Assembly: GCA_043799545.1 (NCBI GenBank)
Contig: JAZDNO010000006.1
Location: forward strand, 96,001-160,000
Origin: Methanobacteriota archaeon
GTDB taxonomy: Archaea > Thermoplasmatota > Thermoplasmata > SG8-5 > DAIRED01
Reading direction: 5' to 3'
DNA: 64,000 nucleotides
Shown here: piece by piece, positions 45,301 through 63,500 of the stretch
Numbering within the stretch: the first letter of the stretch is position 1
Layout: every line of letters begins with the position of its first letter
Translations under genes and position numbers: made by a program
Notes under the pieces: model-generated
The model's database searches: none
Seen by the model: only the letters and a program-made list of their open reading frames with translations
What the model was told of the DNA's origin: nothing

Positions 45301-48300
45301 AGCCCTGTGGATAATCGGGGCCCAGACCGGGTCGTTGAATGCGTAGCTCAGATCTATCGCGACGTTGGGCACGGAGTGCGGGTATAAATCTTGCCCGTCC
45401 AGGGCGTCGATTGTGAGCCAGCGGTAGATGTATGCGGTCGCCGTGTCGTATGTCCGTATTGTCGATGCCGAGACCGCGGTGAGGTCGTAGCGCGAGCTGC
45501 CCCTGATGTTGAGCGTGCCTGTGAACGTCGTGTTCCCGGCAATCATCCTCACGTTGGAGCCGGTGCTGCTGTCGAAGAGGCCCATCACGCTTGTCCCATT
45601 CAAGTTGACTATGACGTTGGCGCCTGAGGCGTAGATGTTGATGTTGGGGCCGAAATAGCTTCCTGAGGATGCGCTTAGCCGGGCGTTGTCCTCGAGATAG
45701 AACGGGGTCGATGGGTTGGCCGAGACGATGGAGCCGCCGTTAAGAGTAATGCTTCCCGACTCCCTCACCTTGATGCTGAATGGCGTTCCAGTAGTCTGGA
45801 GGATTGCCAGACTGCCGTTGATGATGAGATTTCCATTCTGCTCCACGAGGACGAAGCCTCTCCTTCCCACTGCCCCGTTGATATAGTACGGGCTGTTCGC
45901 ATTGTTGACTATCAGGTCCTGCGAAACGTTGTAGATGGCTATGTCGATGTAAGCCTGGTTATCCGTTTGCAAACCAATTGGCGCGTTGACTGTGACGTAT
46001 ATCCTGTGGAAACCGAGGACGTTCGGGACCCAGGGGTTTATCGAGACGACCTGGTTGCCGTTCGCCGGCACGTCAGTGACGGTTCTGGTTCCAATGACGT
46101 TCGACGTGCTGTCGAGCGCGAAGACGACGTCGCACGTTCCGGTGGCTACGACGCCTCCGAGGTTCCTGACCGTGGCCGTTATGCTTGTGGACACGCCCTG
46201 GACCGGCGTGGGGTCGCCGACTACGATGTCCGCAGCGGCTATCGCCAGGTTCGGCTTGGGCTGCACGATGTATTGCTGGCTGGCCAGGTTGCCTACGTAT
46301 TCGTCCACCAGCTCGGGTACGTCGTAGTTGGGGTCCACCCAGACGTAAAGTCTGTACGTGCCGTCCAGCGGCGGGGCGTATTGTATCTCGGAGTTTGTCC
46401 AATCGGGAAGCCAGATGCCGTCGCCGACATCGATGTTGTCTGTGCCGATGAGATGCGTGGACGCGTTCACGTCCAGTATTTCGTCGCCGTTCCAGTCCGG
46501 GCCGCCCCAGCTGAGATTGCCCCAGTAGAAGTGGACCGGGACGCCGGTGGCGTTCGCCGTTCCCACGTTGTGGATTATGGCGGTGACGGTGAGCGTCGTT
46601 CCGAAGGAGACTGTGTTACTTGGCGGCGTGATTGATATGTCGCTGGTGTCGACAAGCAGGTCGGGCATGAACGGCCTGACGTAGATGGACTGGCCCGGAG
46701 AGTTGGTGTTGTTCAATTCCTCCGTGCTGTTTACAGGTCCCTCGTAGACGTTTTTACCATTGTCCACCGTGACTTTGATGTAGTGGGTTCCGCTCGGTTT
46801 GGCGGTCCACGGGATGCTCTGGTTTATGAAGCTACCGGCTCCAAGCGAGGCATAATTTTGTGTGAAAATCGTAGTCGTTGTAGGGCCGCTGATGTCCTCC
46901 ACGAGCACATCGAAGTTCAGAGCGGTGCTGCTTCCGACGTTCTCGATGATGGCAAATATCGTGATGCCTTCATCCTGGTCCGGAGCCGGGTTCGAGAACC
47001 ACACCGGTCCGGGAATGAGGTCCGGCAACGGGACCGCCAGGCCATCGATGACTAGGAGCGGTACCGACGAATCGTCAACGAGAGCATCGGAGTTCTTCTC
47101 CGCGCGGATGTCCGGGAATGGCGCGAAGCTCCTTTTTATACTCTTAGAGAAGCCACCGGAAGTCGCGGTAAACTTGTAATTGCCAATGAACTGGCTATTC
47201 GGCATGGTGGTTGTATTAATAATGTCGGTTATTACGGGCAGGCTCAATTGTCCGCTGCGGTCCGTCTGGGTGTAATTCAGTCCCGTCACCTCGAGAGCGG
47301 AAATTCTGTCCATATAGGCGATGATGCGCTTGTCCGAACTCGACCCATCGGTGAAGTTGTTGGCGGCTTTGATGTAGTTGATGGCCGTTAGATTCAGGTA
47401 ATCTCCCTTGGCCGTCACGGTGGCATCGTTGACCGGGTTGCCGTTCATGTCCAGAACCGGGGTGCTGATCCAGCGGTAGTAGAATACCTGGCTCGTCGCA
47501 TCGAAGAGGTTGAATGGGCTCTGAGGCGGGAGCGGCAGATTGGTAATCGGGTCAATCGGCAGCTCGAGACGGTCGTCAACGCCAAGGCCATCATCGTTTT
47601 GCGAAACGGTAACATTGTACATGTAAACGTTGCTGGTCCCGTTCAGGCGCAATTTATTGTCTTTGCCGACGATGTAGTCCGGGTTCAGATAATCGACATC
47701 TATGAACGAGTTCATAATCGATAGTTCCGAGTTATCGACTGAGATGTAGCCTGAAGGGGCGGGGTCGATTTGAGTAATATTTAGTATCAATTTATCAAAA
47801 GAAATAGCTGCGGGTACACCGTCATCGTCACAATTTTTATAGTAAACATCCAAGCTTGAGGCAATATTAATTGTGTTTACTCCTAATGAAAACACATCAA
47901 TAATTTCTGGTGTGAGTGAACCATCGTCTTCCGAGGGCTGAAACAAGCTAATATTATTCATACCTTCGTCGATGCTAATGTTAACCCACTCATCCCAAAC
48001 ACTTGGCATATTGGTGTAATTATAATTAGTTGAATCATATACAATTTCTATATCAATTCCAATAATCGGCCAGCCAGGTAGCGTTGAGGTATCAAATCCA
48101 TCAATTCCTAATTTTGCAGGGGGATTTGTTAAAGTATAGTATGCTCCATCGGTTATATTTAAATCATATGTATTTGGTTCACCAGAAGTGTCAACAGCAT
48201 CTTTTGAGTTGGGAAACACTTGCGTCGTAATAGTTTTCGGAGGGCATATACCCTTCGTCTGCTCATACAAATTGTCTATTCTGCTGTCCGCTATTGTCAC

Positions 48301-49080
48301 GTCGGCGCAATCGAAGAACCTGATGACAGGGCAGTCGTCTTCCATGTCCTTCAAGCCGTCAAGTATGCCGTCGGCCAGGTCTTCTGCATTGAGATTGGTG
48401 TAGTATTTTGCCAGTGCGTCCTTGTAGTCCTCATCGCCTACGATGGGGCTCCACTTGAAATCGTCCAACCATCCCGGAGCCTCGTAGTCGGCATCGTTTT
48501 CCGACGGATCTTGGTTTGTTATCCACGAGTCGTTGATGTACGTTATCGTATTTCTTATCTGGAGGTCGCCCGGGAAGGCGATTACGGAGTTGTCCGTGAG
48601 CGTCATCGTTGAGTCGTTGACATACATGCCGAATTTAACGTATGGGTGAAGCATTCTGGCATCGGTCACGATTGTTGCGTTGCTCATCAGAAGGGTGCTG
48701 CTGGTGTCTACCGTGAGTTTGAAATGGTGATCATCCGATGTGCCTTCGATGCCGTCCAATCCGTTGTCCTGAGTGAAGTCAAGGGTGGCGTTGGTAATTC
48801 TCAATTGGCCACCGTTCCTGACGATGATGCTGCGATCTGCATAGTAGATGCCATAGTTTTCAGTAATCGGGGACCACATGTATTCGGTGATGTTGAAATA
48901 ATCGTTGTTAGGGTCCGCATCCCCCGCATCGATTATCATCTCGTCCCAAATTCCCTGAATTTCAGGTTGTTCTTCCTTGGACCCCACCGCCATCCCCAGC
49001 AGTCCGGGGACTACCAGACAGAGCACGATCCCAAGGCATATCACACGCTTCTGGGCCACGTGGCCCGAGAGAGTCGTCAT
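42319..49080 (-). CDS. Giant cell-surface protein, 2253 aa: signal peptide, beta-helix-like region, multiple CARDB-like Ig domains, C-terminal TM, cytoplasmic zinc ribbons and Pro/Gln tail
   Basis: N-terminal hydrophobic leader; repeated (L)PDL...I.A.IHN.G...A..V.V.FY...VD....I.E.NE.NN CARDB pattern; TM LWIYIVIIIIIVVAVVGG; 8 CxxC after the TM; RBS GAGGGGTGA. Confidence 0.88.
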   Translation of the reverse strand: MTTLSGHVAQKRVICLGIVLCLVVPGLLGMAVGSKEEQPEIQGIWDEMIIDAGDADPNNDYFNITEYMWSPITENYGIYYADRSIIVRNGGQLRITNATLDFTQDNGLDGIEGTSDDHHFKLTVDTSSTLLMSNATIVTDARMLHPYVKFGMYVNDSTMTLTDNSVIAFPGDLQIRNTITYINDSWITNQDPSENDADYEAPGWLDDFKWSPIVGDEDYKDALAKYYTNLNAEDLADGILDGLKDMEDDCPVIRFFDCADVTIADSRIDNLYEQTKGICPPKTITTQVFPNSKDAVDTSGEPNTYDLNITDGAYYTLTNPPAKLGIDGFDTSTLPGWPIIGIDIEIVYDSTNYNYTNMPSVWDEWVNISIDEGMNNISLFQPSEDDGSLTPEIIDVFSLGVNTINIASSLDVYYKNCDDDGVPAAISFDKLILNITQIDPAPSGYISVDNSELSIMNSFIDVDYLNPDYIVGKDNKLRLNGTSNVYMYNVTVSQNDDGLGVDDRLELPIDPITNLPLPPQSPFNLFDATSQVFYYRWISTPVLDMNGNPVNDATVTAKGDYLNLTAINYIKAANNFTDGSSSDKRIIAYMDRISALEVTGLNYTQTDRSGQLSLPVITDIINTTTMPNSQFIGNYKFTATSGGFSKSIKRSFAPFPDIRAEKNSDALVDDSSVPLLVIDGLAVPLPDLIPGPVWFSNPAPDQDEGITIFAIIENVGSSTALNFDVLVEDISGPTTTTIFTQNYASLGAGSFINQSIPWTAKPSGTHYIKVTVDNGKNVYEGPVNSTEELNNTNSPGQSIYVRPFMPDLLVDTSDISITPPSNTVSFGTTLTVTAIIHNVGTANATGVPVHFYWGNLSWGGPDWNGDEILDVNASTHLIGTDNIDVGDGIWLPDWTNSEIQYAPPLDGTYRLYVWVDPNYDVPELVDEYVGNLASQQYIVQPKPNLAIAAADIVVGDPTPVQGVSTSITATVRNLGGVVATGTCDVVFALDSTSNVIGTRTVTDVPANGNQVVSINPWVPNVLGFHRIYVTVNAPIGLQTDNQAYIDIAIYNVSQDLIVNNANSPYYINGAVGRRGFVLVEQNGNLIINGSLAILQTTGTPFSIKVRESGSITLNGGSIVSANPSTPFYLEDNARLSASSGSYFGPNINIYASGANVIVNLNGTSVMGLFDSSTGSNVRMIAGNTTFTGTLNIRGSSRYDLTAVSASTIRTYDTATAYIYRWLTIDALDGQDLYPHSVPNVAIDLSYAFNDPVWAPIIHRAGTTGTNGKVSFAALSDILTPTVYPTSFFVGNYIIRATYLTYPAWENGTLALTPYPSLVTASNYPEFQIRMTGILPDLDPPVWMIPTLPGRGEQVTIWTSVSNANGITTAYDVIVRFRDETTGQTIGYSSPVDIAAGSVQNIAMPWSFDKLGNHTISVMVDPFDYITEFNENDNWGWLNMTVIGLADLAFPYTYDLYYSPAPYVIGHELTINANVHNIGDIPAIGFNVTFYNGTPSQQTRLGVVNVTILGNGNMETVSVDWTPRRAGRFNISVVIDQWGKVNETSTLNNNVTGVLDVLEYSDIYISDLIFDKTSPVENNTAVKVTARVHNLGGAPASSVIVRFYDGPILVANLIGPADTIAYLPSGIAGDADVLWMARTNDRERVHQITAVASTDIYEGVPGLSNQLTENFTVVDTRPDLTLNETDIVVLTEEIITMKGFQVNVTVHNTAKPIVNYSNGLWDADNVTVDLFDGDSFMADIEEYLANVTVYNFTIVTRNIMSIVNASRLGSAKINLLPANASSTVTIQCSGVNTAGDHNLIAILDGGWDVNTAYGLVNEFNETDNNASKNFTVRMPDFQIHVTSPSQGVILEPGINLNVAGEVINLALSTPASGVVITVILRAEGSTAIIRQTTLTSGSDGVFNGGLAVPADAEGQYTITLNSTNTEDVIVALQFETAPTPTPLWIYIVIIIIIVVAVVGGFTAYTYFVGIGKLVECGSCGAFIPDGAHKCPKCGIEFESETAKCSVCSAWIPIDAKKCPECGAEFTTGDEEGEGYEVKMRAQYDEMLGQIKVQAKKTLGPKMTDEQFQNWWKAQPTFITFDEWLREEEEMRKMGSKPCPQCGTPNNISGRVCHKCGTGLKAEAPKGKMPTPTPVAAAKPTAVPAPATAPKETKKCPNCNMQVDVKEPICPVCGNDFERKSGTPPQPQQRAPSPQPVAAPQPPVQQPPAQQQAGGQPGEPRPVVKKIVRTPMPMQRVVVKKPGEEEKKEGGQQQS

Positions 49081-49179: not shown

Positions 49180-52158
49180 CTATCCATGAAGCTCGCCTCC
49201 GCCATCCGAAACTGCCTTGAGAGCCAGTGACTCCGCCCTCTCCGCGGCTCTTTCCGCCCATTCGACCCTCCCCGAGCCAAGGTACTCCCTGGCCGATTCA
49301 AGCTCCCTGCGCGCCCCGGAAACGTCGTAGCCCCCGATTTCCAAATCCGCCACGAGGCTCTCCGCGTGATTAAGCCTGCCCGCCGCGCGCCCCCGTTTCC
49401 TGCGGGCGGCCGACACTGCATAAAACGCCGCGGCGATGGCAACGGTGGCGAGGGCAACCCCTAAAAGGGCAGCGACCGGCAGCTCGAAACGCTTTGCGAC
49501 CTCCGGCTCCACTGAGATTTGCAGCCTCGCCGAATTGTTCGACACAGAGAAATCGACGACGGTGCAGTTGACCGGGACTATCGTGGCCAGGATGGTCGCG
49601 TTGCCGGCCGAGATGGGTGTCCAATTCAGCGCGAAGGCGGCGTTCCTGCCGTTTGAGAGAAACACGGTCCGGTTGGTGAGCAAGCCATCGGGGGAATAGA
49701 GCTTCACCTCTGCCAGGCAGGGCTCCATCCCGGCGTTACCAGCAGTCAATTCCAATCCAACAGGTTCGCCGACCCGGTTCTCACCGCTCGTGTTGAAGAC
49801 CCCGACGTACAGGTCGAGGAAAGCGCTCACGACCACGCTCAGATACGAGCCCGCGCTCGGCGCCCTGGACTGAAAACCGGAGGGGTCGACGGATTCGAAG
49901 TAGTAGCTTATAGTCGTTCCGTCCGGCTGTCCCGGAATCTCGGCGGAGTACCCGCCGTTCCCCGACGGCGCCATGGCGGAAACGTTCCACCTTCCAGCCT
50001 GGGTATAGTGCAGGGTCACGTTGGCGCCCGCCGGGCCCGAGAACCACGCCTCGAACGGGTATGGACCAGTCGTGTTCTGGGCGGCGGGCGCGGCTCCGGC
50101 GGTCACCAGCGCGCGCGGCGTCGGGTTATCGAGTTCCGAGAGGTACTGGCGCCAGGACGCCGCCGAATCGAATTCCAAATAACCTAGGTCGAAGCCACCT
50201 AAAAGCGGATGGTAGACGTACAGGCCTTTGACGCCGCTCGCCGAGAAACCCGAGAAGATGGCGACGGTCGAAAGCTCGAGGGACTGGAGCAAATTCTCCG
50301 ACCTTTCCCTTATCAACGGTACTAGCGTGCCCTCCAAAATCAGCCTTTCGCACAGCGATGCCACGTCTACAAGGTTCGGCTTGGAAGACCAAAGCCCTCC
50401 CGTCGCGTTTCTCGCGGCGAGGATGGCAGAGAGGTTGTAATACGCATAACCGGACAGCGCATCCGACAGGGAGCGCCAGGAGTCGAGAGCGTCGCCGAGC
50501 AAAGGCAGGGAGAACGCCCCCATCGAGCCGTACCCGACCCAGGAATATTTGCCGGCGTAGGCTTCCACCAGCGATTTGCCGAGGGCGTCCGGCCCGGCGT
50601 TGGTGTTCGCGCCCAAACGTCCGAGTACGGCCGTGTAGTCCCAGCCCGTGTCCGGCTCCTCCAGCTCCGAAGCGACGAACGCCCTCGCGCTGCCCGACAG
50701 CTCCGCGGCCATCTCCAGGCTCGCCCCCCAGCACAGGTCCAGGCCGACGAGGTCGATGGGAGCGGCGCCCCGCAGGACCTCGCAGGCGTCCGCCGTTCCG
50801 AGCCACATCCCGGCATCGAGGCAGAGCCCGCCCAGCACGTCGTTCCCGTGGTCCCAAAGAACGACGGCGAAGCGCTGCGACGGGTAAGCGGCCCGCGTCC
50901 AGTCCATGAACCGCTCCAGCGTGGACGGTTCGCTCATCGCTACCTCGCGGGAAGGGGCGCCGATGACCTCCCCTCCGTCGTCGAGGGCCGGGGACATGAC
51001 GTTTGCGCTGTCCATGTCATGGGCGATGCGGTACAGCTTCGAGTCACCGTTTCCAGGGCCGTCGTAAAGCACGACGACGTTGGCATCGACGACCGCCGGC
51101 GCCGCCTCCATCTCGTTCAGGTCCAGGAGAGCCTGGTCCGCCAGGTTGTTGTCGGCGGCCATGTAAACCGCCACAGTCCAGTCGGGCAGCGAAGAATCAT
51201 CCGCGCGCCCGGCCATCTCGCAGGCGTAGAGCGCCGCCTCGACGTTCCCAGGTGTCATGCCATCAATCTCCGGTTGGTCTGGGAAGAATCCCGTCCCGAT
51301 TTCCACGGTGACGGGGGCGGCGGACATGTTGGCATAGAGCCAGTCGTCGCTGTCGCCGAAGGTCTGGTAGGTTGTGTGCCCTTCCACGGCCGTGTAGCCG
51401 TTCCGCTCCGCGACTTCGGACGCAAGGGCTTCCAGGGTGGCGTTGGAGCCCGTGTCCTGGCCGTTGTTCCACGGATAGTAGACAAGCTCGCCGTACGAGT
51501 GGAACGATACCGACGTTGAGAACTTCTCCCTCTCCGCCAGCATCCTGATGGCATTTGTCTCGACCTCGGAGAATGGCCCCGGCCCGCAGTACTCCTGCGA
51601 CGCCGGGTCGTGGACTGAATTACCCTCGCCCCAGAGATGGCCGTAGTTCCTGTTGAGGTCCACGCCCACGCCGTCCGTGATGCCGTCTCCGTTGGAGTCC
51701 ACGGGCCTGCGGTTCTTGCGCCATTCCGTGTCCCCGGTGCCGAGCACGTGCTCGATGCCGTCCGGGTTGACCATCGGCACGAGCCAGATTTCGCGGTTGT
51801 CCAGCAGCCAGCGTATTGTGCCGTTCGATCCGTATCCGTCGGCGAGGGTGCGGGCAACGGCGAGGGCGACCGCGACGGACGCTGGCTCACGCGCATGATG
51901 CCCGCCCATGACGAGCGCCGCCGGACCGGCTCCAGCGCAGAGCCGAAGCCCCAGCACGCCGCGCCCCTCGAACGTTGTGCCGAGGGTTTCCAAGGTGGCG
52001 AAACCGGGATGCTGCGCGGCGATGCCCTGCAGGGCAGATTTCACGTCGTCGTAGCCTGCATATCCGTCCAGCGCGCGGTTCTCCGGCGTTGTGGCAGCCA
52101 GAGGCGCCGCTGCGACGAACAGCATCGCGATGGCCACGCCCAGCGCCGCAGTCCTCAT
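49180..52158 (-). CDS. Secreted, membrane-anchored fusion of an M14 zinc carboxypeptidase and a C11 (clostripain-family) cysteine peptidase
   Basis: M14: HHARE, NPDG, RKNR, GVDLNRNY, SFHSYG, VEIG. C11: VYMAADNNL, LWDHG, LDLCWG, ASELEEP. Then an Ig/CARDB-like domain and a C-terminal TM. Confidence 0.88.
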   Translation of the reverse strand: MRTAALGVAIAMLFVAAAPLAATTPENRALDGYAGYDDVKSALQGIAAQHPGFATLETLGTTFEGRGVLGLRLCAGAGPAALVMGGHHAREPASVAVALAVARTLADGYGSNGTIRWLLDNREIWLVPMVNPDGIEHVLGTGDTEWRKNRRPVDSNGDGITDGVGVDLNRNYGHLWGEGNSVHDPASQEYCGPGPFSEVETNAIRMLAEREKFSTSVSFHSYGELVYYPWNNGQDTGSNATLEALASEVAERNGYTAVEGHTTYQTFGDSDDWLYANMSAAPVTVEIGTGFFPDQPEIDGMTPGNVEAALYACEMAGRADDSSLPDWTVAVYMAADNNLADQALLDLNEMEAAPAVVDANVVVLYDGPGNGDSKLYRIAHDMDSANVMSPALDDGGEVIGAPSREVAMSEPSTLERFMDWTRAAYPSQRFAVVLWDHGNDVLGGLCLDAGMWLGTADACEVLRGAAPIDLVGLDLCWGASLEMAAELSGSARAFVASELEEPDTGWDYTAVLGRLGANTNAGPDALGKSLVEAYAGKYSWVGYGSMGAFSLPLLGDALDSWRSLSDALSGYAYYNLSAILAARNATGGLWSSKPNLVDVASLCERLILEGTLVPLIRERSENLLQSLELSTVAIFSGFSASGVKGLYVYHPLLGGFDLGYLEFDSAASWRQYLSELDNPTPRALVTAGAAPAAQNTTGPYPFEAWFSGPAGANVTLHYTQAGRWNVSAMAPSGNGGYSAEIPGQPDGTTISYYFESVDPSGFQSRAPSAGSYLSVVVSAFLDLYVGVFNTSGENRVGEPVGLELTAGNAGMEPCLAEVKLYSPDGLLTNRTVFLSNGRNAAFALNWTPISAGNATILATIVPVNCTVVDFSVSNNSARLQISVEPEVAKRFELPVAALLGVALATVAIAAAFYAVSAARRKRGRAAGRLNHAESLVADLEIGGYDVSGARRELESAREYLGSGRVEWAERAAERAESLALKAVSDGGGELHG

Positions 52159-52164: not shown

Positions 52165-55100
52165 TCAGTTGAACTTGGTCAGCCCGGTCAGGGTCACGTC
52201 GTCTATGTAGACCCCCCACGGGGCGCCGTTCGATGCGTAGTGCGCGTATGAGGCGTCGTTATTTGTGACGATTCTGAAACGGAGCTGTATCTGCTTCCCG
52301 CGCCAGGAGTTCAGGTCGACGTTGAGCCTCGTCAGCGTGTCCGCAGAGACCCAACCGTTGGCCCCGTTCAGTCCCGTGTAAGTCTTCCCGTCCAGCTTTC
52401 CGTCGTCGATGTCGGCGCCCGTATTGGACAGGCTCCACGCGCACCTCACGCCGAGGTTGAGGGTATGCCAGCTCGCCCCCTTGTCGGGCGTGACCTCGAC
52501 GCGGAGGCAGTCCGGCGGCACGCCCTCGGCGGTGTTGATGTTGAACTTGAAGTAAGCGCTGAGGGTGACCTGGACCGCGCTCGTGAGGTCGATGGGGGTG
52601 GTGATTAGGGCGTTGTCGATGCCCGGCTTGAGGCCGTTCGCGGCTACGTCATGGCTCCACCATGCGTGGGTCGGCGCGCCGTAGCGGTCAGTAGTGTAAT
52701 TCATGTCCCAGACGTCTTTGTGCGCCGCCAGCAGGGTCGCGTTGCCCCTGCCCACCCTGAGCTGCACGTCGTCGAGGTACCAGCCCACGCCCGTTCCCCC
52801 TCCGAACTGGATGTACTTGAAAGCGACCCTGACGCTGGAACGGTATTGGACCGGGATGTATGGCATTATATCTAGCTCCACACGGTCCCAGGCGTAGGTC
52901 CCGGCGCCGCTGACGCCGTTGAAGCACCACTTGATTTGGTTGCCGAACCCGTCGTATTCGTTCTCGAGGAAATACAACCCGCCGGTGTAGATGCCGTTCG
53001 GGATGATGTACAGGAACTTCCAGGGCCCCACGATGGGCGGGTCCCGGACCTCGACGCCTATGACCCCGCCGTTGCCGCCGGGGAGCATGTTGTACTTGTG
53101 CGAGAACGACAGCTTCGCAGTCTGGTACCCGCTCAGGTCGACGGCGGGCGAGACGGCCTGCTTGTCAACGTTGGCCGCGTTGGGCGATGGCTGCGCCGGG
53201 GCAGAGCGGGTCTGGTTGAAGCCGCCCGAGTTGATGATGCCGCTGATGTTGATGAAGATGTCCTCGAGGTTGGTGCCGTCCTCTGAATAGTAATAATCGC
53301 CGTCTGATGTGTCGGCAATCCTCCACAGGTTGTATTCGACAGTCCCGGATTCAGTCCCAATTATATGCGTGTATGGGTTCGTGGCGTATTCCGCCGGCGT
53401 GCTCGCGACGCCGTTGCTGGCCGGTCCAGCCGGATAGTGCTCGATACCGACGCCGATTGTGAACATGGGCACATCAGAGTACAGCAGCCCCTTCCTGTCG
53501 TTGAACCAGGCGCCTCCGTGAGTTCCTGCCCGAATCCACTCACCCCACTCGCCTATGACCTGGTCCTGGTAGTACCAGTATTTCCCCCAGTGGTTCGGAT
53601 AGTCGCCCTCGACGCCGATGGAGGTTCCCCACGGAGCCCACTCATCACTCCCGCATTCCAGCTTGTTGTACCCATACGAAGACGAATCAGCAGACTGCAG
53701 GTCGAAACCGTCCGTGAGGGCAACGACGGCCGCGAAATGCTCCGGGTATGTAGGGATGGCCGCCTGCACGGCCTCCCAGCCCAGCCCTATCGCGTCCCAG
53801 ATGGCGGTGTTCGTGTTACCCTGGTCTAGGTCGCTGTAAATCATATTGGTTACATTCTCCCGGCCAGTACCCGCGAGGAGCGTCATGCCGATGAGCGGCC
53901 TCTCGTTCGCACCCTGGAAATGGTAGACTCCAACGACCGAATTGTCGCTGAACGCATTGACCATCGAGGCGGCCGCATCTTGGGTCACCTCGAGTAGGGT
54001 CCTTCCTGAACCGTCCGTGCATATCCTGTCGGTCATCGAAGGGGAGTTGTCCAACACTATCGCCACGAGGACGTCGGCTGTCCCGAACACACCCTGCGGC
54101 TCCTCCATGTAGTACGATTCGTTGTAGCTGTGGTACTGCGCCGAGGTGTTCGTCACTCCGCTGGTGAACCGAACCGTGCTGCTCGGGTAGGTGCCGTAGT
54201 CCCAGTCCTTTTTGACGTCCGTTTTGACGTTCGTGTACGATGCGCCCAGGAAGTTCAGCGGCCCCTCGCTGTTGATGTTGAGGAGCGTCGCCTCGTGCTC
54301 CCACTTGCCCGTCCCGCTCTCCATGTCGTCGAAGAAGAAGTAAACCTTGGTCTCGTAGGAGGCGTTGTTGTTGAACCACTCGAAGACCTCCCCCGTCTCG
54401 TTTAGAGGGTCCACCAGCACGCGTATCGTGCGGCTCCCGGTGGCCAGGGGGCGCCAGATTATCTCCGCCGTCGTCTCGTTGTCCGGGCTGATGCCTATCG
54501 AGTCCGAGCCTATGGTGGTGTTCTCGTCCATGAATCTTACCAGAGCGCTCGCCTCCGCGTATCCCGCGAGGTTGCGCACGGTCGCCTGGAGCACGTACGA
54601 GTTGCCTATCTGCGGGTGGAGGTCCGAGACCTTCACGTCGATGCAGGAGACCTTCAGCTCGCTCCGCGTCTCAGGGCGACCGAACCAGTCGAGGACGAGG
54701 AAGGCAATCTCCTTCCGGGCCTCGCCGGCCGTCGGCAGCTGCCATCCGCCGTCCGCCAGGTCCAGGAGCGAGAACGAGTTCAAAACGGTGGAAAAGTCCG
54801 ATGTCCTGACCCGGACGCCGAGGAACCTGCCGGGCGTCGCGCTGAGGATGTAGCCGGTCGCGCCCGCCGCCGGCGTGATTGCGTCGCAAGTCCCCGCGCC
54901 GGCCCCGTAGTGGATGCCGTGGCCGAGTTCGTCGTCGGTGATTCCCGAGATGTCGTCCGGCAGTGCCTGGGGCACCGCCGCGCCGACTCCGAAGTGGGAG
55001 CTCATGAAAACCGAATCGGACTGCTGCGTGGAGTTCTTGCCCTGGAGCCAGACCCTTCCGCTTTTGTTGAAGTAGTCTGCCAGCTTGACCTGGTCCTGAG

Positions 55101-57516
55101 GCGCTATGCTGTTGGCCGCGTCGCCGGAGACCCAGATGACTACGTTATAGTCTCCCAGGTTCCTCGTGTCCGGCAGATAGCTGCCCACGCTCACGTTTTC
55201 CTGCTCGTACTTGCAGGCGAAGCCGTCGAGCGCTTTGGTCAGGTTTCCGGTCTCGTCTCGGAGAACCCCGCCGTTGTTGGGGCTCTCGTCGTCGTCGACG
55301 ACCAGCAGCCGGAACAGCACGTTTATCGTCGTCGCAGTCACCAGCCCGCCGGCCTGATTGTTGTTCTCGTTGGATTCAGTCTTCGCCCCGTCGGGGTCGA
55401 CCCTGACGACGAGCGTGTGCACGCCGGGGCTGGAGGCGTTCCAGGTCCAGCTTTTCACGACCTTTCCGCCGTGGCCGGGAACGAATATCGAGGCGTTGTA
55501 GCTCCCGGCGAGCGGGGCGCCGTCGAGCGCGACGTCGGCAGAGACGTTGTCGTCTTTCGCGCCGTTGTTCCTTATCCAGGCGGTCACGGTCACCTGCTCC
55601 TTGTAATAGACCACTTCGGGCTCGATGGTCTGGCCCGTGACGGCGAAGTCTATGATGTTCTTCTCCGTGAGGTTGCCGAGCCACAGGATGACGGCGTACG
55701 CGGCGTCAGTTTGGACCGAGAGGTCAGCTATCCTGCTGAAGTCCCAGCCGAAAGTTATGATGCGGGAGTCGAGCGCGTCATTCTCGTACGAAACGGCGTC
55801 CGAGCCGCCCGTCCGGTTGAACATGCTGACCGCCCCGGCGCCAGGCCCCAGGATGGTGCTGGTTTTCTGGCTGTCGAGCCTGTACGTCGTGTTGATGGAC
55901 GTGACTGGCGTGGACCAGTTCCTGGCGACCGGGTGCCCCGGGTTGCCGGCGAGGGGCGTGGTGAGGCTGGCGGACGTGCCAGCGTTCGAAAGGTGCAGGT
56001 ACGTAGATGCGAAGGTGGATGCGGAGACGCTCGGGTCGTCCAGGAAACTCTGCCCTATCATCCAGAGGCTCCCGGTCGATGTGCGCCCCGTCGTATCGGC
56101 GAGGTATTTCCCCAGATTTGTCCTGTCCTCGGCCGTCAGGGTTCCCGCGTTTTCGTAGCCGCAGTTCCAGACAACGACGTCGTAGCTTATCAGCTGCGTC
56201 ATCCCCGAGTTGAAGGCGGGGCCGTTCCCGCCCGGGACGACGAACATGTCGTATTCGAATCCGCCGCTGTCCAGCGCCTCGCGCAGGTACCTTGTGGAGT
56301 CACGGTCCCCGCCGTCGTTCTGGTCGTCGTCGACGAGCAGCACCGTAGGCAGGATTGTCAGCGTGTAGTTGAGGTAGTTGTCAGTCGTGCCGCCCTCCGG
56401 CTCGGCAACCGGCGATGTTACGACCGCCGAGATGAAGATGATATGGTTTCCGCCAGGGCCAGCATTCCTCCATGTGAACTTCTCGGTTATCTGGTCGGAG
56501 ATGCCGAGGAACGGGGTGTCGCGCGCCCACCAGCTGCCGGACCTGTCCGCTACCGTGAGGTTAATTCTGGCGGCCCCTCCGCCGTAGTTGCTCACAGTCA
56601 CCTCCAGCGTGAGGTCGTCGCCGTTCTGCGGGTCCTGGGGATTGACGAAGACCTTGTCCATGCTGAGGTGTATCTCAGGGCGGGCGCCTATCTCCCTGCC
56701 CAGAGTCAGCAGCACGACTCTCGTCGCGACGTGGCCTGCCATGTCGGTGGCCCTGACCGTCGCAGGATAGTAGCCGTCGTGGGTGACGTACGTCCCCATC
56801 ATCCTCGAAACCTGGAAGACGCCCGCGGCGCCCTCGGTCAGGGGTATTGCGGTCTCCAGCGGCCCGAGGAGGTGGCTCAGGTCCACGGTCGGCGTTGCGG
56901 TGTTGAGGTCGCCGTTCGGGTCCGAGAGCCGGACGTAGAACGTGAACGGTTCGTCGTTCTGGATGGGGTCCCTGGCCAGCGTCGTCAGGTCCGAGTCCGC
57001 CCAGGCGTCCATGATGAGGGGCGCGTAGGACTCGTTCCCGCCCTGGAGCTTGCTGCCCCAGACGTAGGTGTTGCGCTCCATGTCTACAACGGAGGCGTCC
57101 ATGGTGGAGGTCGGCCAGACCGACAGCGGGGGAAGGTGTATCTTCCAGACGTCCGACGGGTCCCAGGTGTCGTCCGCGGCGTTGTTGATGAACGTCACGC
57201 CGCTGTACGTGGCCACGTCGTACGAAGTTGAGGTCCCGTTGATTGTGATGATGACCTTGGCCTCCAGCGCGACCAGGCTCCGCCCGCCGATGTGCGTTAT
57301 GAAGACCTCCGCCCCGTTTGACCACTCTGGCACGCCAGATGGCTGGACGCGCCCTATGAACGACACCTGCGTGTTTCTGGTGGGCGCGGGCATCCGTCCC
57401 ACGAAAGCGATGATGCTGGAGAACAGCAGCACCGTGAGTCCGAGGATCAGGATGGTGCTGACAACCTCGGAGACGCCCCCCGAATCCCAGCCCCGTTTCC
57501 TCGTCAGCCTTTTCAT
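52165..57516 (-). CDS. Giant type IV pilin-like adhesin, ~1780 aa, with CARDB-like, (L/I)LVDDD alpha/beta, vWA and beta-sandwich domains
   Basis: MKRLTRKRGWDSGG|VSEVVSTILILGLTVLLFSS (class III signal peptide-like); vWA MIDAS VLDNSPSM and ALTDG; FFFDDMESG and GWYLDDV beta-sandwich motifs; RBS GGGGTGAG before ATG 57516. Confidence 0.85.
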   Translation of the reverse strand: MKRLTRKRGWDSGGVSEVVSTILILGLTVLLFSSIIAFVGRMPAPTRNTQVSFIGRVQPSGVPEWSNGAEVFITHIGGRSLVALEAKVIITINGTSTSYDVATYSGVTFINNAADDTWDPSDVWKIHLPPLSVWPTSTMDASVVDMERNTYVWGSKLQGGNESYAPLIMDAWADSDLTTLARDPIQNDEPFTFYVRLSDPNGDLNTATPTVDLSHLLGPLETAIPLTEGAAGVFQVSRMMGTYVTHDGYYPATVRATDMAGHVATRVVLLTLGREIGARPEIHLSMDKVFVNPQDPQNGDDLTLEVTVSNYGGGAARINLTVADRSGSWWARDTPFLGISDQITEKFTWRNAGPGGNHIIFISAVVTSPVAEPEGGTTDNYLNYTLTILPTVLLVDDDQNDGGDRDSTRYLREALDSGGFEYDMFVVPGGNGPAFNSGMTQLISYDVVVWNCGYENAGTLTAEDRTNLGKYLADTTGRTSTGSLWMIGQSFLDDPSVSASTFASTYLHLSNAGTSASLTTPLAGNPGHPVARNWSTPVTSINTTYRLDSQKTSTILGPGAGAVSMFNRTGGSDAVSYENDALDSRIITFGWDFSRIADLSVQTDAAYAVILWLGNLTEKNIIDFAVTGQTIEPEVVYYKEQVTVTAWIRNNGAKDDNVSADVALDGAPLAGSYNASIFVPGHGGKVVKSWTWNASSPGVHTLVVRVDPDGAKTESNENNNQAGGLVTATTINVLFRLLVVDDDESPNNGGVLRDETGNLTKALDGFACKYEQENVSVGSYLPDTRNLGDYNVVIWVSGDAANSIAPQDQVKLADYFNKSGRVWLQGKNSTQQSDSVFMSSHFGVGAAVPQALPDDISGITDDELGHGIHYGAGAGTCDAITPAAGATGYILSATPGRFLGVRVRTSDFSTVLNSFSLLDLADGGWQLPTAGEARKEIAFLVLDWFGRPETRSELKVSCIDVKVSDLHPQIGNSYVLQATVRNLAGYAEASALVRFMDENTTIGSDSIGISPDNETTAEIIWRPLATGSRTIRVLVDPLNETGEVFEWFNNNASYETKVYFFFDDMESGTGKWEHEATLLNINSEGPLNFLGASYTNVKTDVKKDWDYGTYPSSTVRFTSGVTNTSAQYHSYNESYYMEEPQGVFGTADVLVAIVLDNSPSMTDRICTDGSGRTLLEVTQDAAASMVNAFSDNSVVGVYHFQGANERPLIGMTLLAGTGRENVTNMIYSDLDQGNTNTAIWDAIGLGWEAVQAAIPTYPEHFAAVVALTDGFDLQSADSSSYGYNKLECGSDEWAPWGTSIGVEGDYPNHWGKYWYYQDQVIGEWGEWIRAGTHGGAWFNDRKGLLYSDVPMFTIGVGIEHYPAGPASNGVASTPAEYATNPYTHIIGTESGTVEYNLWRIADTSDGDYYYSEDGTNLEDIFINISGIINSGGFNQTRSAPAQPSPNAANVDKQAVSPAVDLSGYQTAKLSFSHKYNMLPGGNGGVIGVEVRDPPIVGPWKFLYIIPNGIYTGGLYFLENEYDGFGNQIKWCFNGVSGAGTYAWDRVELDIMPYIPVQYRSSVRVAFKYIQFGGGTGVGWYLDDVQLRVGRGNATLLAAHKDVWDMNYTTDRYGAPTHAWWSHDVAANGLKPGIDNALITTPIDLTSAVQVTLSAYFKFNINTAEGVPPDCLRVEVTPDKGASWHTLNLGVRCAWSLSNTGADIDDGKLDGKTYTGLNGANGWVSADTLTRLNVDLNSWRGKQIQLRFRIVTNNDASYAHYASNGAPWGVYIDDVTLTGLTKFN

Positions 57517-57520: not shown

Positions 57521-60500
57521 TCACCCCAGTATCGTGTTGCCCCTAACTTGCACGTCGTCAACGTAGAAGCCGCCGAAGCCCACGGTGTTGCTCTTGTATG
57601 CGTAATAGCCCGCGACGCTGTTGGTGACCATCCTGAACCTCAGCATTATCGCGTTGCCGCCGAACGACGAGAGGTCGACGTTCAGGCGCGTTAGGGAGCT
57701 GGCGGAGACCCAATAGTTGCCGGAATCGATTCCGCTGTAGGACCTGTCCGGCGTGTCGTCCTTTCCGTCCGAGAGGTCGCCTTCGACCCCCGAGACGTTC
57801 CAGGCGGCGCGGACGCCCAGGTTGATGGCGGACCAGCTCAGGCCGTTGTCCTTGCTTATCTCGACCCTGAAGCCGTCCGGCGGCGCGCCGTCCGCGGTGT
57901 TGATGTTGAACTTGAAGTAGGCGCTGAGCGTCGCGCTCCTGGCATTGGTCAGGTCGATGGGCCCGCACATCAGCGAGTTGTCTATGCCCTTCTTCATGTA
58001 GCCAGTGGCGCTGTCGCCGTTCCACCAGGCGTAGGTGCCGCTGTGGGCGGTGTGGAGCATCGTGCCTCCGGGGCCGTACGCCCATCCGGACGTTACGAGC
58101 CTCCAGGCGTCGGCCGTGACGTTCTCCGCATTGCCGCGGGCGACCGCGACCTTGACGTCGTCTATGTACCATCCGTAGCCCGTCCCGCCGCCGTACTGGT
58201 AGTACTGGAACCTGACGCGGACGTTGCTTAGCGGGTTGTAACCGGCGATGCCCGTCTGGTTGACCCACGGCAGGAGGTCGACGCTGACCTTCTCCCAGGC
58301 AAACGTTCCGCGCCCGCTGACGCCGTTCCAGCCCCACTGCATGAACGTTCCCATGCTGTCGGACCTCAGAGCTCTGGCGGTCACGTTGGCCGCGTCCGCG
58401 CCGTTGAACAGCCTCAGGTTGCCGGTGTATGCGCTGCTCGGGACGACGTAGCGCCACTTCCAGGCGCCCACGGCGCTCTCCTTGTACCCGACCATCAGGA
58501 CCCCGCCGTTCACGCCCGGCACCATGTTGTACTTGTGCCAGAAGCTGAGCGTTGCCGTTTCCAGGTTGGTCAGGTTCATTCCCTTCGTCACCGCGGACTT
58601 GTTGGAGTTCGGACCGGCGGGGGAGAGGCCTGGAATGGAGGAGCCGGTGCCCCCTCCTCCGGAGGATGCCGCCCCGGTGGTGAATGTCCACGAGTACGGT
58701 GTGCCGGTCAGGGGGAGCCCGTCAGCCGAGTCGGAGCCGGCCGTGACGGTGACAGTGTATGTGGTCGAGTAGGCGAAGGCCGTGTGGGCTATCGTCAGGG
58801 CGGTGTTTCCGCTCGTCCAGGCGTTGGCAAGCCCGCCGGGGTTCGGGTTGACGGTGTAGGCCACCGTCCCGGTGCTCATCGCCTTGCTGAAGACTATGCC
58901 GATCGAGGTGGTGATTCCGACACCCGTCGCGCCGTTGGACGGCGAGACGTAGACTATCGACGGGGCCGTCGGGCCCGAGGCGGTTGTGAAATGGAATGGG
59001 TTCGGGGCCGCGCTATAGCCGCCGATGGAGATGTCGTCTATCGCCCAGCCGTCGTCGTTGCCGCTTCCGTCGCTGGACATCCAGAACCTGATGATGATGG
59101 ACTGGCCGTCGTAGGCCGAGAGGTCCACCGTGTCCTGCTGCCACACCCCCCAGTCCCCGGTCCAGCCCTGGCTCTGGCCGTGCTTGGTGTTGTAGTCTCC
59201 GTTGCCGTCGATGCTCGCGTCCCAGCCCTGGCTCGGCAGGTTCGGGGCGGCCAGGTTCCAGGTAGTTCCGCCGTCGTTTGAGACCATGACGCACCCGCCG
59301 TCGTAGTTGTTCTCGAACTCGAAGTAGTTCCAGAACGTCATCACGGTGCTGGAGGAGCCGGCAAGGTTGAAGGACTGCTCCAGCCAGTTGTTCGCGTCGT
59401 CGTCATAGTTGTTGTTCAGGTCCAATTCGAGGCAGTTGGAGCCGGAATGTGGAGCTATGCCTGGGTCGCTCGGGTCCCCCCGCTCCCACTCGTCCTGAGT
59501 CCCGCCATGGCTCCAGCCGTCCCATCCTGCCTCGAAATCGGTCGCGTGCAGGGTGATGCTGGTGCCGCCGGACAGTGGCACGCCCGCCTTGGAGCTGCCT
59601 CCGGTAATAGTGAACGTGTAGAGCATGGCGTAATCGAAGTTCGCGTGCGTGTAGGTTGCGACCGTGTCGCCGCTGCTCCACGATACCGCCCAGCCGCCCG
59701 GGCTGGGGGCGCAGGTGTAAGTTACGGTTGCGATGTTCATGGGGACGCTGAATGCGACGGATACTGCGGCGTTGATTGCTATTCCGGTGGCCCCGTTGGA
59801 CGGGTACGTGTAGGTTATGTAGGTGCCGACCGAGGGTACGGCGGTGGCGAAGGCCCAGACCGGGCCGTTTGTCGTCGCCGAACCGTCGTTGGCAATCACG
59901 TACCAGTAGTAGAGGGTGGATGCCGCAAGGGCGGGAGATGTGGTCGTCGCCGCGATGTCGTTCGCGACTAGAACGGTCGGCGGGTTTGTCGTTCCCAGGT
60001 ACACGTCGTAGGTCAGCGGGTCGCCGTCCGGGTCGCTGCAGGTCCAGGATAGGGCCGAGGTCGTCGCCACGTTCACGGTTCCGTCGGCCGGGCTCGGGTT
60101 GGACGGCGCGTTCGGCGGCAGGTTGGGGCGGGTCCAGCGGAAGCCCTCGATTCTGGTGTCGTACGGGGTTATCCCCCAGTATATCCTGTCGTTTCCAGCC
60201 CCGGCCGAATTGGCTATTAGATAGTACCTGACTGTCCACATATTGTTGTCTAGCTGGCTAGCCCCGAGTTGCTCGGTCGTGAACGTCGCCCTCAGGGTCG
60301 CTGGCGGGTTTGTGTTTCTGTCGGCGTATACCCTGACAACGATGGAATCTGTGGACGCAAGGCCAGTTGACGGAGGGGTCCATGTAGCCGAGTATATTCC
60401 TGCGCCATTGGCGGTCACGGAAGCTATCGCGGATACGGCGCCGGTTATCTGCGTTTCCGCCCCTCCCGACGAACGTTGGTACACGCGGATTCCAGCGTAC

Positions 60501-63500
60501 ACCGTACCGCCGTCGCCCATCGAACCAGGGCCCGCCTGAGTGCCAGACTGCGTAGTACCAAGCGAGTAGGCGGTCAAACCGTTCACATTCGCCTCCAAAT
60601 TCACGCCTCTCATGTACCTAGTCTCTGTGACCGTCGCCAATGGAGCCGGCCCCGGGAAGGCCCGCGTCCCAGGCTGCGGACCGGAAACGCCCTGCGTCCC
60701 CGGCGGAGGGTTGCCCGAGCGGGTGATGTTCTGGCCGGAGAGCTGGGTGGATATCTGGGAGAATATAAACTGGAAGATGGTGCTCAAGTTGCTGCTCGCA
60801 GCTTCATAGAAGTACTGGCCGTGAATGCCTTTCTGGACGGATGTATTGGCTATCTTCCAGAGGTCGTATTCGGTTGTGAACGGCGCCCATGCCTCTGTCA
60901 TTGTTGGCGAGTGCGGGTTGACTCCTAGCCCCACGGTGTAGACGATTGCGGGGGCGTAGATGAGGCCGGTTCTCGACTGTCCTGCCACGTTTGTGGTGAC
61001 GTCGTACACGTCAGGGTTGTCGGGTTCTCCGTTGCCGCTGTCGGCGGTGTTTATATCCGACCAAGCGTACGCCCCTGCCCTGTACCGGTAAACATCGTGT
61101 CCGTTCGTTCCATCTACGTTGTCATAGCGAACCGTCGTGTCCCCCCATTTAAGACCGGCTGCGCGTCCCCACGAGGATGTCGACCACAAACTCCCGACCT
61201 CGGAGCCTGGGCAGTAGTACTCGCTCCCCTCTTCGTTATTGTCACCGCCCCACCCATCATCTGGACCGTAGTCGTCCCCGTCCGTCAGTGCAACGAGCAC
61301 CTGTACATAATCTGAGCCAGCAGTTCCTGTGGCTCTTGGATTGTTCTTAACGTAGTTTAAGGAAAAACCTATAGTGTCCCAGATGGGGGTATAGGTGTTT
61401 GTGAAAAAAGCAGCGTTGTCGATTGTGGTGTTGAACGATGTTCTGTTGGCCTGCACCATCCAGGCGAAGGTTCTGGCTTGATTGTATGTGGGGTCGCCAT
61501 CCGTAGTCTGGAAGTTATACAGGGTGCACCGATCCGTCGAGCCCAGCTTCGCTATAAAATCCTTAGCAGCGTTCCTTGCATTGGTGAAATCAGTACCACT
61601 CATACTTCCACTCGAGTCTATAACTATCGCAACATCCATCGGTACTCTTGTCGTAGTCGTTGTTGTCGTACTCCCCGCCGGCTCCTGCAGCCAGTACGAC
61701 TTGTCGAAAGTGTGGTAGAAGCCCGCGTCCGTGCTGTTCGTCACGTTAGTGTAGGGCAGCCCAGTGAGCGGGTTGACGAGGGCGCGGTCCCAGTCCTTCT
61801 CGATGTTCATCGAGACCACGGTCCCGGAGATGTAGTCCAGCGGCTGCTCGCCGTTGATGAGCGTGACGGTGCTGTCGTGGTTCCATTTCGACTCGCCGTT
61901 CTCCATGTCGTCGTAGAAGAAGTAGACGTAGGTCGGGTAGGAGATGAGATTGTTGAACCACTCGATTATCTCCCCGGTCTCGTTTATCGGGTCCACCAAC
62001 ACATACAGGGTGCGCTGCCCCGCGAAGAGCGGCGTCCAGATGACCTCCGCGGTCGTGAAGCCGGCGGGCGACACGGTTATCGAGTCCGAGCCTATCTGGG
62101 TCGTCCCGTCCATGAAGCGCACCAGCGCGTTCCCGCTCGTTCCGCCGGTGTTCTGCACCTTCGCCTGGAGCACGTACGAGTCGCCGAGCTGCGGGTTGAC
62201 CGCGGCTCCGGACGCGACCTTGACGCCGTCTATGAAGAAGTCCGTGAGGGCCGTGCGAAGCTCCACCCGGAGCTCCGGCAGGCCGAACCAGCGCAGCACC
62301 ATCTGCGCGAGCTCGGCGCTCGCGTTCGCGTTGCCCGGGAACTCCGAGGAGCCGTTGAGGTCCTGGAACGAGAACGATGTAGTCACTGACTTGAAGCCGC
62401 CCGTCGAGATGTTTACGGCGTTGAACCAGGACCCGTTGTAGGGGAACATCCCCCTCGCCAAAAACGTCGGGAAGATGGCCTGGCTGGTTCCGGCCTTCAG
62501 CCTGTACGACGTGCCGTGGGTGATGTTGTGGCCGTCCACCCCCGCTAGGGACGCGGGCGCGACCACCGCCGCGGCCGATGCAACCCCCAGGTAGTTCTGC
62601 TGGAAGACGCTGGCCCCGGTGTTCAGGCAGTTCCTTCCGACCAGCCAGAGGCATCCACTGTTGTTCAGGTAGGCGCCGAGGTTCGTCGTGTCAGCAGGCA
62701 GCAGCGGGTTCGCCGCGTTTCCCGTGGACCATATCACCACGTTGAAGTCCTTCATGTAATCAAAGATTGGTCCGGGCTGGCCCGGGAGGACGGACCACGA
62801 CTCGTTGAAGTGGCCGAGGCGCGTGAGCGCGTTCCTGATGGCGGTCGTCTCGTTCCCTGGCGCAATGTCCGTCTCGTCGTCGTCTACGACAAGTATGCGG
62901 AACTGGACGTTGATTGTTCCCGAGGCGAGATAGTTAGACACTACGTTGTTGTTCTCGTTGGTCTCCGTAATCAGCTTGTCGGGGTCGACTTCGAGGACTA
63001 TGGTGTGGTACCCGACCAGTACGGGCGTCCAGACGAACGGCCCGACAGAAATCCAGTTCGAGCCGATCGTGTTGCTCACGGTAATCTGGATGTCCGGGAT
63101 GATGCCCTGGTCGTTCAGGGGCATGCCGTTGTAGTAGATTGTGAGCCTCACGGACGAAGTTTCGAGCTGCATTCCGTTGTTGCGGACTATGCCGGAGATT
63201 TGGACGGGCTGGCGGTAGTAGACGACGTCTTTATCTATGGTCTGTTCGGATATGGCGAGGTCCCGCCCGAAGGAGGTGTTGATGTTGCCGAGCCAGCGTA
63301 TCACCTGGTAGGCGAGCTGAGCCTGGTCTGACGTGTCTTTAATCCTGGAGAACGCCCAGGGAGTGAAGTACGTTCTGGTGTTGTTGTTGATGTCGAATCC
63401 GACTCCGTAGCAGTCGCCGGTCGAGGTGTTGACCAGGGAGTTGAACGACCTGGGGTCTGCCCCCTTGTTGATCGCCCAGCCGTTCGTGAAACCCGTCTTG

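Follow-up and report, generated by a model that had tools for sequence, protein, structure and literature searches.

A gene on the minus strand of the archaeal contig JAZDNO010000006.1 encodes a 1783-residue protein, hereafter the giant, in which an archaeal type IV pilin module is joined to ten further domains, among them a predicted von Willebrand factor A (vWA) domain with an intact MIDAS, or metal ion-dependent adhesion site. We analysed this gene within a stretch of 64,000 nucleotides (the window; positions 96,001 to 160,000 of the contig, or G000:C10:96001-160000 in our coordinates), which comes from a 2.06 Mb Thermoplasmata genome, G000, that is 94% complete. The reading we favour, with a probability of roughly 0.55, is that the giant is a modular minor pilin or adhesin that is processed by an A24 prepilin peptidase and displayed by the adjacent type IV pilus machinery, probably at the pilus tip. 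The giant is not a one-off, as it is a member of a large and widespread family of proteins.

A protein of about 1780 residues had been described in the initial annotation of this locus, and the description holds. The reading frame is open without interruption from 57561 to 52165, with the stop codon at 52165-52167, and the likely start is the ATG at 57516, 4 nt beyond the TGA at 57521-57523 that ends the upstream gene. The corresponding position is where orthologues also begin, with MK(R/N)..., and full-length versions with 36-62% identity are found in many genomes in the same gene order. The product has a pI of 4.6 and is covered by no NCBIfam family. Its length is about ten times that of a typical pilin, as had been proposed, given that the small pilins encoded by the same genome measure 149-170 amino acids (aa). 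The giant carries 26 N-x-S/T sequons, a modest enrichment over the 16.5 +/- 4.1 expected. Strongly hydrophobic 19-aa windows form a cluster at the N-terminus, with the last of them starting near residue 722 and none in the C-terminal half, and a hydropathy scan found no C-terminal membrane anchor.

The evidence that carries our reading begins with the N-terminus. Residues 1-162 form a complete archaeal pilin module, with leader, hydrophobic helix and beta head, rather than an anchor only. The leader peptide (residues 1-14; 57475..57516, minus strand) reads MKRLTRKRGWDSGG and is followed by VSEVVSTILILGLTVLLFSSII; it is basic, with five K/R residues, ends in WDSGG, and is predicted to be cleaved at a class III site after G14. 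The remainder of the pilin module (residues 15-162; 57031..57474, minus strand) is delimited by profile matches to Pfam and the PDB, by predicted secondary structure and by hhalign. Pfam Pilin_N (PF07790) matches residues 14-94 with 39.1 bits against a cut-off of 25.2, covering profile positions 2-77 of 78, and the score in a scan of the genome is 44.9 bits. A profile of residues 1-162 built from 24 orthologues and paralogues (A3) matches 8fj5_A, a subunit of 145 aa from an archaeal pilus filament of solved structure, with an E-value of 1.7e-7. This alignment pairs profile positions 10-123 with chain residues 8-128 and spans the leader, the helix and the beta head, including a common 'itH-x-GG-x-s' motif. 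The same profile also matches Natrinema PilA2 (8gi2), 9myg and, weakly, CdiPB of Cuniculiplasma (8rey). In the last of these alignments (E 0.088), V15, the predicted +1 residue, pairs with residue 1 of the mature chain 8rey_M. The class III, pilin-type N-terminus that had been noticed from the letters alone is thus borne out both by the Pilin_N score above cut-off and by the match to 8fj5 over helix and head.

In the AlphaFold2 (AF2) model, residues 15-40 are predicted to form a helix that breaks at a conserved PAP motif, followed by a beta sandwich at residues 52-157 whose head carries a conserved H-x-GG motif. Across 24 relatives, the residues at -1 (G), +1 (V), +2 (S) and +3 (E) and the helix are near-invariant, with G14, V15, S16, G20, L23, T28, V29, L31 and F32 invariant or nearly so, and aligned orthologues and paralogues retain the leader pattern W-[DEN]-x-x-G|V-S-E. 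A Sec signal peptide was considered for this region and rejected, since the cleavage-type motif is conserved and lies before, not after, the hydrophobic stretch.

Only five proteins of the Pilin_N kind are encoded in the genome, namely three small pilins (149-170 aa) with the pattern ...G/A|VSPVIATILMV and two giants with the pattern ...G|VSEVV. When the pilin-module profile of the giants was compared by hhalign with the small pilin of the genome, the two aligned with 96% probability and in register across the cleavage site. The small pilin itself matches CdiPB (8rey) weakly. A gene with Peptidase_A24 and Arc_PepC_II matches is also present in the genome (G000:C2; L002:1820-2719, minus strand). 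We infer from these features that the giant may be cleaved by this prepilin peptidase and incorporated into a filament.

At E-value thresholds of 1e-3, 1e-10 and 1e-30, a search with the pilin-module profile recovers 2986, 792 and 88 representative clusters, respectively. Domain hidden Markov models (HMMs) were built from each domain of the giant and run on the best 150 representatives, 83 of which are at least 1000 aa in length. The pilin module and the immunoglobulin (Ig)-like domain that follows it, Ig2, occur as a pair in 116 of these 150, the remaining architecture of the giant is common to only about 30, and the vWA cassette is found in 17. In 88 of the 150, the pair is followed by something unrelated to the giant. 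For example, eight sampled proteins of about 1150 aa (P0038, P0040, P0046, P0052, P0058, P0066, P0085 and P0099) keep the pilin and Ig2 domains and replace the rest of the chain with FG-GAP (integrin-alpha-like) repeats. Because the pair occurs with varied and unrelated partners, it behaves as a carrier for exchangeable passengers, and it appears to follow the same logic as the modular pilins of bacteria. The NCBI and JGI pipelines name members of this family 'type IV pilin', 'FlaG/FlaF family flagellin', 'Ig-like domain-containing protein' or 'hypothetical protein'.

The second line of evidence is the vWA domain (residues 1146-1433; 53218..54081, minus strand), which was assigned by VIA-align, Foldseek and conservation of the MIDAS. 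Its sequence is divergent, such that Pfam VWA_2 stays below its cut-off of 27 bits for both the whole protein (21.5 bits) and the isolated segment (24.5 bits), and neither the A2 profile, built from the C-terminal half, nor the vWA segment alone gave a match when searched against PDB sequences. The assignment therefore rests on fold and motif. When the predicted domain (residues 187-474 of the second AF2 model) is compared with solved structures by VIA-align, the best match is 4fx5, with Z 20.5 and a root-mean-square deviation (rmsd) of 2.5 A over 180 aligned residues. Matches to solved vWA domains overall fall at Z 18-20.5 and an rmsd of about 2.5 A over about 175-180 residues, and some 50 further vWA entries reach Z >= 17.5. 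The aligned structures include the vWF domain of Mfa5, a tip protein of type V pili (6tnj, Z 19.8), and Streptococcus sanguinis PilB (7b7p, Z 19.0), as well as ITIH1, BatB and others. Three tip adhesins of sortase pili, PitA, SpaC and RrgA, are also among the Foldseek matches to the vWA-bearing model.

All five MIDAS residues are present in the giant (D1156, S1158, S1160, T1237 and D1269), and the DxSxS motif and the threonine are conserved in 10 of 10 aligned orthologues. The modelled fold and its intact motif thereby agree with the MIDAS-bearing vWA domain of the initial annotation, and the likeness it had drawn to bacterial vWA pilus adhesins appears apt in view of the PilB, Mfa5 and sortase-pilus matches. 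A predicted fold resembling that of pilus tip adhesins, together with a conserved MIDAS, speaks for display of the giant on a pilus. The domain contains a low-confidence insert of about 70 aa (residues 1272-1342). In the paralogue of the giant, which is encoded immediately upstream, the vWA domain passes PF00092 with 38.8 bits and has an intact MIDAS (DSSGS...LTDG).

The vWA domain is nested in a predicted jelly roll whose N-terminal half (jelly roll 1, residues 1062-1143; 54088..54333) and C-terminal half (residues 1444-1594; 52735..53187) lie on either side of it on the minus strand. Both halves were delimited in the AF2 model, and the second was also mapped by HMM in relatives. In the relative P0035 the two halves are separated by 14 aa only, whereas in other relatives an insert of 232-1115 aa occupies this position, in some cases with no vWA domain that can be recognised. 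We conclude that the vWA domain is a cassette in a fixed insertion site between the jelly-roll halves, and that this loop is a hot spot for insertion. The insert (53188-54087 in the window, minus strand) measures about 300 aa in orthologues, where it holds the vWA domain, and up to 1115 aa in larger paralogues, where it holds a vWA domain plus more; P0035, P0016 and P0021 are relatives that differ at this site.

The remaining domains were delimited by the AlphaFold domain parsing that the initial annotation had suggested as a check, which yields the pilin module plus ten further domains. Two AF2 models were computed with family alignments, one for residues 1-965 (predicted local distance difference test score, pLDDT, 82) and one, part B, for residues 960-1783 (pLDDT 69). 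All coordinates in this paragraph are on the minus strand. Ig2 (residues 165-292; 56641..57024) is predicted to be all beta, with pLDDT of about 80-85. It is followed by CARDB domain 1 (residues 295-390; 56347..56634), which is recognized by Pfam CARDB and by a PDB profile match to 2kut, and by an alpha/beta domain A of GATase1-like (ThuA/GIFT-like) fold (residues 391-616; 55669..56346), whose model aligns with 2gk3 and 3rht (VIA-align Z 17.2 for each). CARDB domain 2 (residues 620-728; 55333..55659) is matched by Pfam CARDB at residues 623-721 and by PDB entry 2l0d (E 1.1e-9). GATase1-like domain B (residues 732-952; 54661..55323) aligns with 5xb7 (Z 18.5), 7vkw (Z 17.9) and the ThuA-like 4jqs (Z 15.9). 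Next comes a third, CARDB-like domain (residues 960-1061; 54334..54639), seen as a beta sandwich in part B and represented by a family HMM, 'CARDB3', that recurs in relatives. After jelly roll 1 and its nested vWA domain, the protein ends in a MAM-like jelly roll (residues 1599-1783; 52168..52722), for which the isolated segment matches Pfam InhA-like_MAM with 30.8 bits and Foldseek finds reelin-repeat folds.

Two extracellular GATase1/ThuA/GIFT-like domains thus alternate with CARDB domains, and no Pfam family covers either of the two. A look-up of domain A in the ESM Atlas gave low-feature matches to DUF4960, DUF2194 and LBP_M, which serve as a lead only and are consistent with the VIA-align result. 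For the model of the N-terminal 965 residues, Foldseek gave nothing more specific than generic multi-Ig chains, such as complement and macroglobulins, and it was wide VIA-align that identified the GATase1-like domains. Identity as an InhA-like M6 peptidase was rejected, as InhA-like_MAM alone matched and the giant has no catalytic domain or peptidase family.

The third line of evidence is genomic location. The giant is the second gene of a tight minus-strand operon that comprises, in order, the paralogue, the giant, a peptidase fusion and a large zinc-ribbon protein, with gaps of 4 nt to the paralogue, 6 nt to the peptidase and about 100 nt between the peptidase and the zinc-ribbon giant. All of the roughly twelve related genomes that were examined keep this arrangement of four genes, and the operon is conserved across the order. 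The tandem paralogue (2555 aa; 57521..64000, with its first 1188 nt beyond the window at G000:C10:160001-161188; minus strand) matches Pilin_N, CARDB, VWA, MAM and Big_5, and has the leader NKKG|VSEVVG. The third gene (992 aa; 49180..52158, minus strand) encodes a fusion of an M14 zinc carboxypeptidase (residues 41-299) and a C11 clostripain (residues 331-544), assigned by Pfam, hydropathy and conserved synteny. Hydropathy predicts a Sec-type signal, a C-terminal transmembrane (TM) anchor at about residues 890-912 and a cytoplasmic tail of about 80 aa. The last gene (2253 aa; 42319..49080, minus strand), assigned by Pfam, hydropathy and synteny, encodes a CARDB-rich surface protein for which a TM segment is predicted at about residue 1950 and whose zinc ribbons are cytoplasmic.

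On the opposite strand, and convergent to this operon, lies a set of type IV pilus genes (36764..42268) whose nearest gene end is 50 nt from that of the operon and which is about 10 kb from the giant gene. Matches to T2SSE and PilB3_C identify two ATPases, E1 (36764-38446) and E2 (40517-42268), that flank two T2SSF half-platforms, Fa (38436-39461) and Fb (39466-40506). Fa and Fb are the only T2SSF matches in the genome. With two ATPases and a split platform protein, the machinery is of the CdiP type. A third T2SSE-type ATPase (633-aa frame) occurs elsewhere on the contig (G000:C10:54496-55182, minus strand), and no T2SSF partner for it was found in the genome.

The machinery is preceded on the plus strand by a gene for a DUF7289 protein (35817..36764, with a probable start at ATG 35832), recognized by Pfam DUF7289 and by the leader ...W-G-S-E-G|V-A-S-T-V-G-T. 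This leader type, ...W-[DN]-x-E-G|V-[AS]-S-T-[VI]-G-T, is conserved in six orthologues. When the pilin-module profile of the giants was compared with the mature DUF7289 protein by hhalign, no relation was found (probability 3%), and for this reason we call DUF7289 pilin-like only by its leader and helix. A complex prediction with the mature pilin modules of both giants and DUF7289 scored 0.01, which is no answer and is evidence neither way. A leader of the W-D-x-x-G type is common to DUF7289 and the giants and is not shared by the small VSPVIATILMV pilins. The DUF7289 proteins of the window and of five other loci (L013, L015, L017, L019 and L032) also have a strongly conserved QYVP-x-WMEDNEA-x-HM motif after the helix.

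At least five families show linkage between the giant operon and the machinery. Among the relatives surveyed, giants reside on the contig of the machinery in G000, G002, G006, G012 and G022, as do shorter proteins that bear this pilin module in G023, G028 and G040. In G004, G007 and G022, the DUF7289 gene is located directly beside the giant pair and not beside the machinery. In addition, the machinery is present in 37 of the 37 relatives that have a match to the giant.

These observations can be combined in the following mechanism. The preprotein would enter the membrane and be cut after G14 by the A24/Arc_PepC_II prepilin peptidase of the genome, and the two-ATPase, split-platform machine would then pull the helix of the giant out of the membrane. 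The giant, its paralogue and DUF7289 would prime the filament and would thus cap a pilus whose shaft is formed by the remotely encoded small pilins. At the tip, the MIDAS of the vWA domain and the jelly-roll and GATase1-like domains may bind protein or glycan ligands. Because a passenger of about 170 kDa cannot fit into the shaft of a filament, the tip, or a very short stub, would be the only compatible position. The notion of a priming complex draws on the fact that type IV filaments assemble from tip to base with minor pilins first, and on the precedents of PilA/PilB/PilC in S. sanguinis and CpaJ/CpaK/CpaL in Caulobacter.

Several points weigh against display of the giant on a pilus. The machinery is near-universal among relatives in the class (39 of 41 genomes), and its co-occurrence with the giants accordingly has little power. 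Giants are also found unlinked from the machinery, on other contigs in G004 and G007 (family f4) and far apart from it on the single contig of G033. The leader of the giant has Gly at -2 and Ser at -3, whereas K/R is found at -2 or -3 in most relatives, among them its own paralogue (NKKG|V). The operon partners are anchored in the membrane at their C-termini, which fits a complex at the cell surface equally well. Moreover, archaeal class III proteins exist that do not form filaments, such as the sugar-binding proteins of Sulfolobus, and a look-up of sequencing runs listed none, of either RNA or DNA.

On the main rival explanation, the giant might be an envelope adhesin tethered to the membrane, in which the class III N-terminus, cleaved or not, serves for export and membrane anchoring only and is never polymerised. 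Both giants, the anchored peptidase and the zinc-ribbon giant would then join the glycoprotein surface layer of a Thermoplasmata cell that lacks an S-layer. This explanation accommodates the observation that four of four operon products are membrane-anchored surface proteins, the absence of an S-layer from the envelope, the size and the Ig-like/CARDB chains that are typical of envelope proteins, the modest enrichment of N-glycosylation sequons, the separation of giants from the machinery in G004, G007 and G033, and the established existence of non-filament class III proteins in archaea. However, a near-invariant G|VSE cleavage motif would be superfluous for a plain anchor, the conserved pilin head is homologous to those of filament-forming pilins, and linkage of the operon is seen both to the machinery, in at least five families, and to the DUF7289 gene. 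We regard the envelope adhesin as a serious possibility that nevertheless falls clearly behind display on a pilus.

Less probable again is a capture device akin to a bindosome or pseudopilus, in which a short stub would hold detrital protein or glycan for the anchored clostripain/carboxypeptidase and would thereby serve nutrient capture, not attachment. The fusion of C11 endopeptidase and M14 carboxypeptidase is conserved directly downstream of the giant pair in every related locus examined, vWA domains bind proteins, and the bindosome of Sulfolobus is an established example of uptake served by class III proteins. Yet the operon includes no transporter gene, the sequence gives nothing to tell a stub from a full pilus, and the peptidase could equally mature the giants. 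We hold a capture device of this kind to be rather unlikely. Similarly doubtful, in our estimation, is the proposal of a device for capture and digestion based on a pilus, according to which the giants and DUF7289 would make up the tip complex that primes a CdiP-type pilus. The passenger domains of this complex would fish detrital protein or glycan back to the anchored clostripain/carboxypeptidase, with the cassette site in the jelly roll as a hot spot at which ligand specificity is swapped. Finally, the notion that the giant is a chance open reading frame, a pseudogene or an assembly chimera is refuted by conservation, namely by the full-length orthologues in the same gene order, and also faces a frame uninterrupted across 5.3 kb and two confident AF2 models.

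Display of the giant on a pilus, the reading we favour, can be compared with several known systems. The modular pilins of S. sanguinis, PilB (pilin plus vWA) and PilC (pilin plus lectin), likewise bear an adhesive passenger on a pilin module, and the predicted vWA domain of the giant aligns with PilB and has a full MIDAS. The tip complex of S. sanguinis combines one smaller pilin (PilA) with two modular pilins, and the set encoded at the giant locus similarly consists of one smaller pilin-like protein and two modular ones. However, the N-terminus of the giant is of the archaeal Pilin_N type and not of the bacterial type. The bacterial class III motif (IPR012902, G|[FM]xxxE, with Glu5) is absent, as the giant has Val at +1 and Glu at +3. 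Consequently, the giant is an analogue and not a member of the bacterial modular type IV pilins. The proteins also differ in size (1783 aa versus about 460 aa for a modular pilin of S. sanguinis) and in layout, in that the vWA domain of the giant is more than 1000 residues from the pilin and nested in a jelly roll, whereas that of S. sanguinis is joined by a short linker. The largest protein in a survey of modular pilins restricted to bacteria measures 860 aa.

A second parallel is offered by TadG/CpaL of bacterial Tad pili, which like the giant combines a pilin-like N-terminus with a vWA domain that has a MIDAS and a beta-rich insertion (PMC12607857). CpaL is predicted to reside at the tip with two minor pilins (PMC12607857), and the TadB/TadC-like split platform of the Tad machinery resembles Fa and Fb. 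Unlike the giant, TadG/CpaL is bacterial and measures about 600 aa; no sequence similarity between the two was detected, and the roles of CpaL in mechanosensing and holdfast control have no known archaeal counterpart. PilY1/PilC of bacterial type IVa pili is likewise a large, modular, tip-associated adhesin, in some cases with a vWA-like N-terminal domain. PilY1 is not a pilin, however, and rides on four minor pilins via its C-terminal beta-propeller, whereas the giant carries its own pilin module. No PilY1-type family is among the Pfam matches to the giant at E <= 0.01.

In archaea, the machinery has a counterpart in Cuniculiplasma divulgatum, whose CdiP pilus (Gaines et al. 2025, PMC12448462) has the same layout of two ATPases flanking a two-gene platform and likewise has its major pilins encoded at a distance. 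The portion of that article available describes no giant pilin, tip protein or adhesin for CdiP, and the words 'adhesin' and 'tip' have zero occurrences in its text. For large secreted proteins encoded beside archaeal pilus genes, adhesin-like or termed 'minor pilin or adhesin', Makarova, Koonin and Albers (2016, PMC4858521) drew on the analogy with PilY1 to predict a role as tip adhesins, and KaiC-like ATPases are noted at such loci, as at the giant locus. The examples given there differ from the giant, since those from methanogens are DUF2341 proteins and those from Thermoproteales are unnamed, and the vWA proteins mentioned are cytoplasmic regulators (ArnB). 'Thermoplasma' and 'Thermoplasmata' have zero occurrences in that paper, and none of its passages that the search returned connects a pilin with a vWA domain. 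Full-text literature searches for archaeal pilins of giant size, or with vWA, FG-GAP or CARDB domains, found no paper, in agreement with the earlier remark that no characterised archaeal equivalent is known.

Other genes near the operon add to the inventory of the locus. Just upstream of the paralogue is a gene for a 399-aa protein with three zinc ribbons (L001:1289-2488, minus strand), beyond which lies a gene for a KaiC-like ATPase of 332 aa (L001:2665-3663, minus strand), and the pair spans G000:C10:161289-163663. A further KaiC-like gene is located at 30300-32714 in the window, and with this gene and the zinc-ribbon tail of the 2253-aa protein included, the locus is rich in KaiC-like and zinc-ribbon parts.

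Bacterial modular and vWA-bearing minor pilins were known, as were large adhesin-like archaeal proteins predicted at pilus loci in 2016. The present locus adds to these giant, modular, pilin-like archaeal proteins that carry vWA domains. The mechanism by which archaeal type IV pili adhere is largely obscure, and our literature searches found no characterised archaeal pilus tip adhesin. The giant family offers a concrete candidate, in which the pilin carrier is identifiable, further ligand-binding modules accompany the MIDAS-bearing vWA domain, the operon is conserved, and the machinery is defined and of the CdiP type that was recently solved in Cuniculiplasma. The G000 locus is of particular value in this respect, since the giants, the machinery and DUF7289 are all on one contig. 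If the giants do cap a pilus, the modular-pilin strategy of bacteria would also be used by archaea, with proteins three to five times as large, and the question would arise of how a machine that has no secretin, in a cell that has no S-layer, handles a subunit of 190-280 kDa. In addition, the conserved pairing of the giants with a surface-anchored C11/M14 peptidase may bear on the use of detrital protein by Thermoplasmata in sediments.

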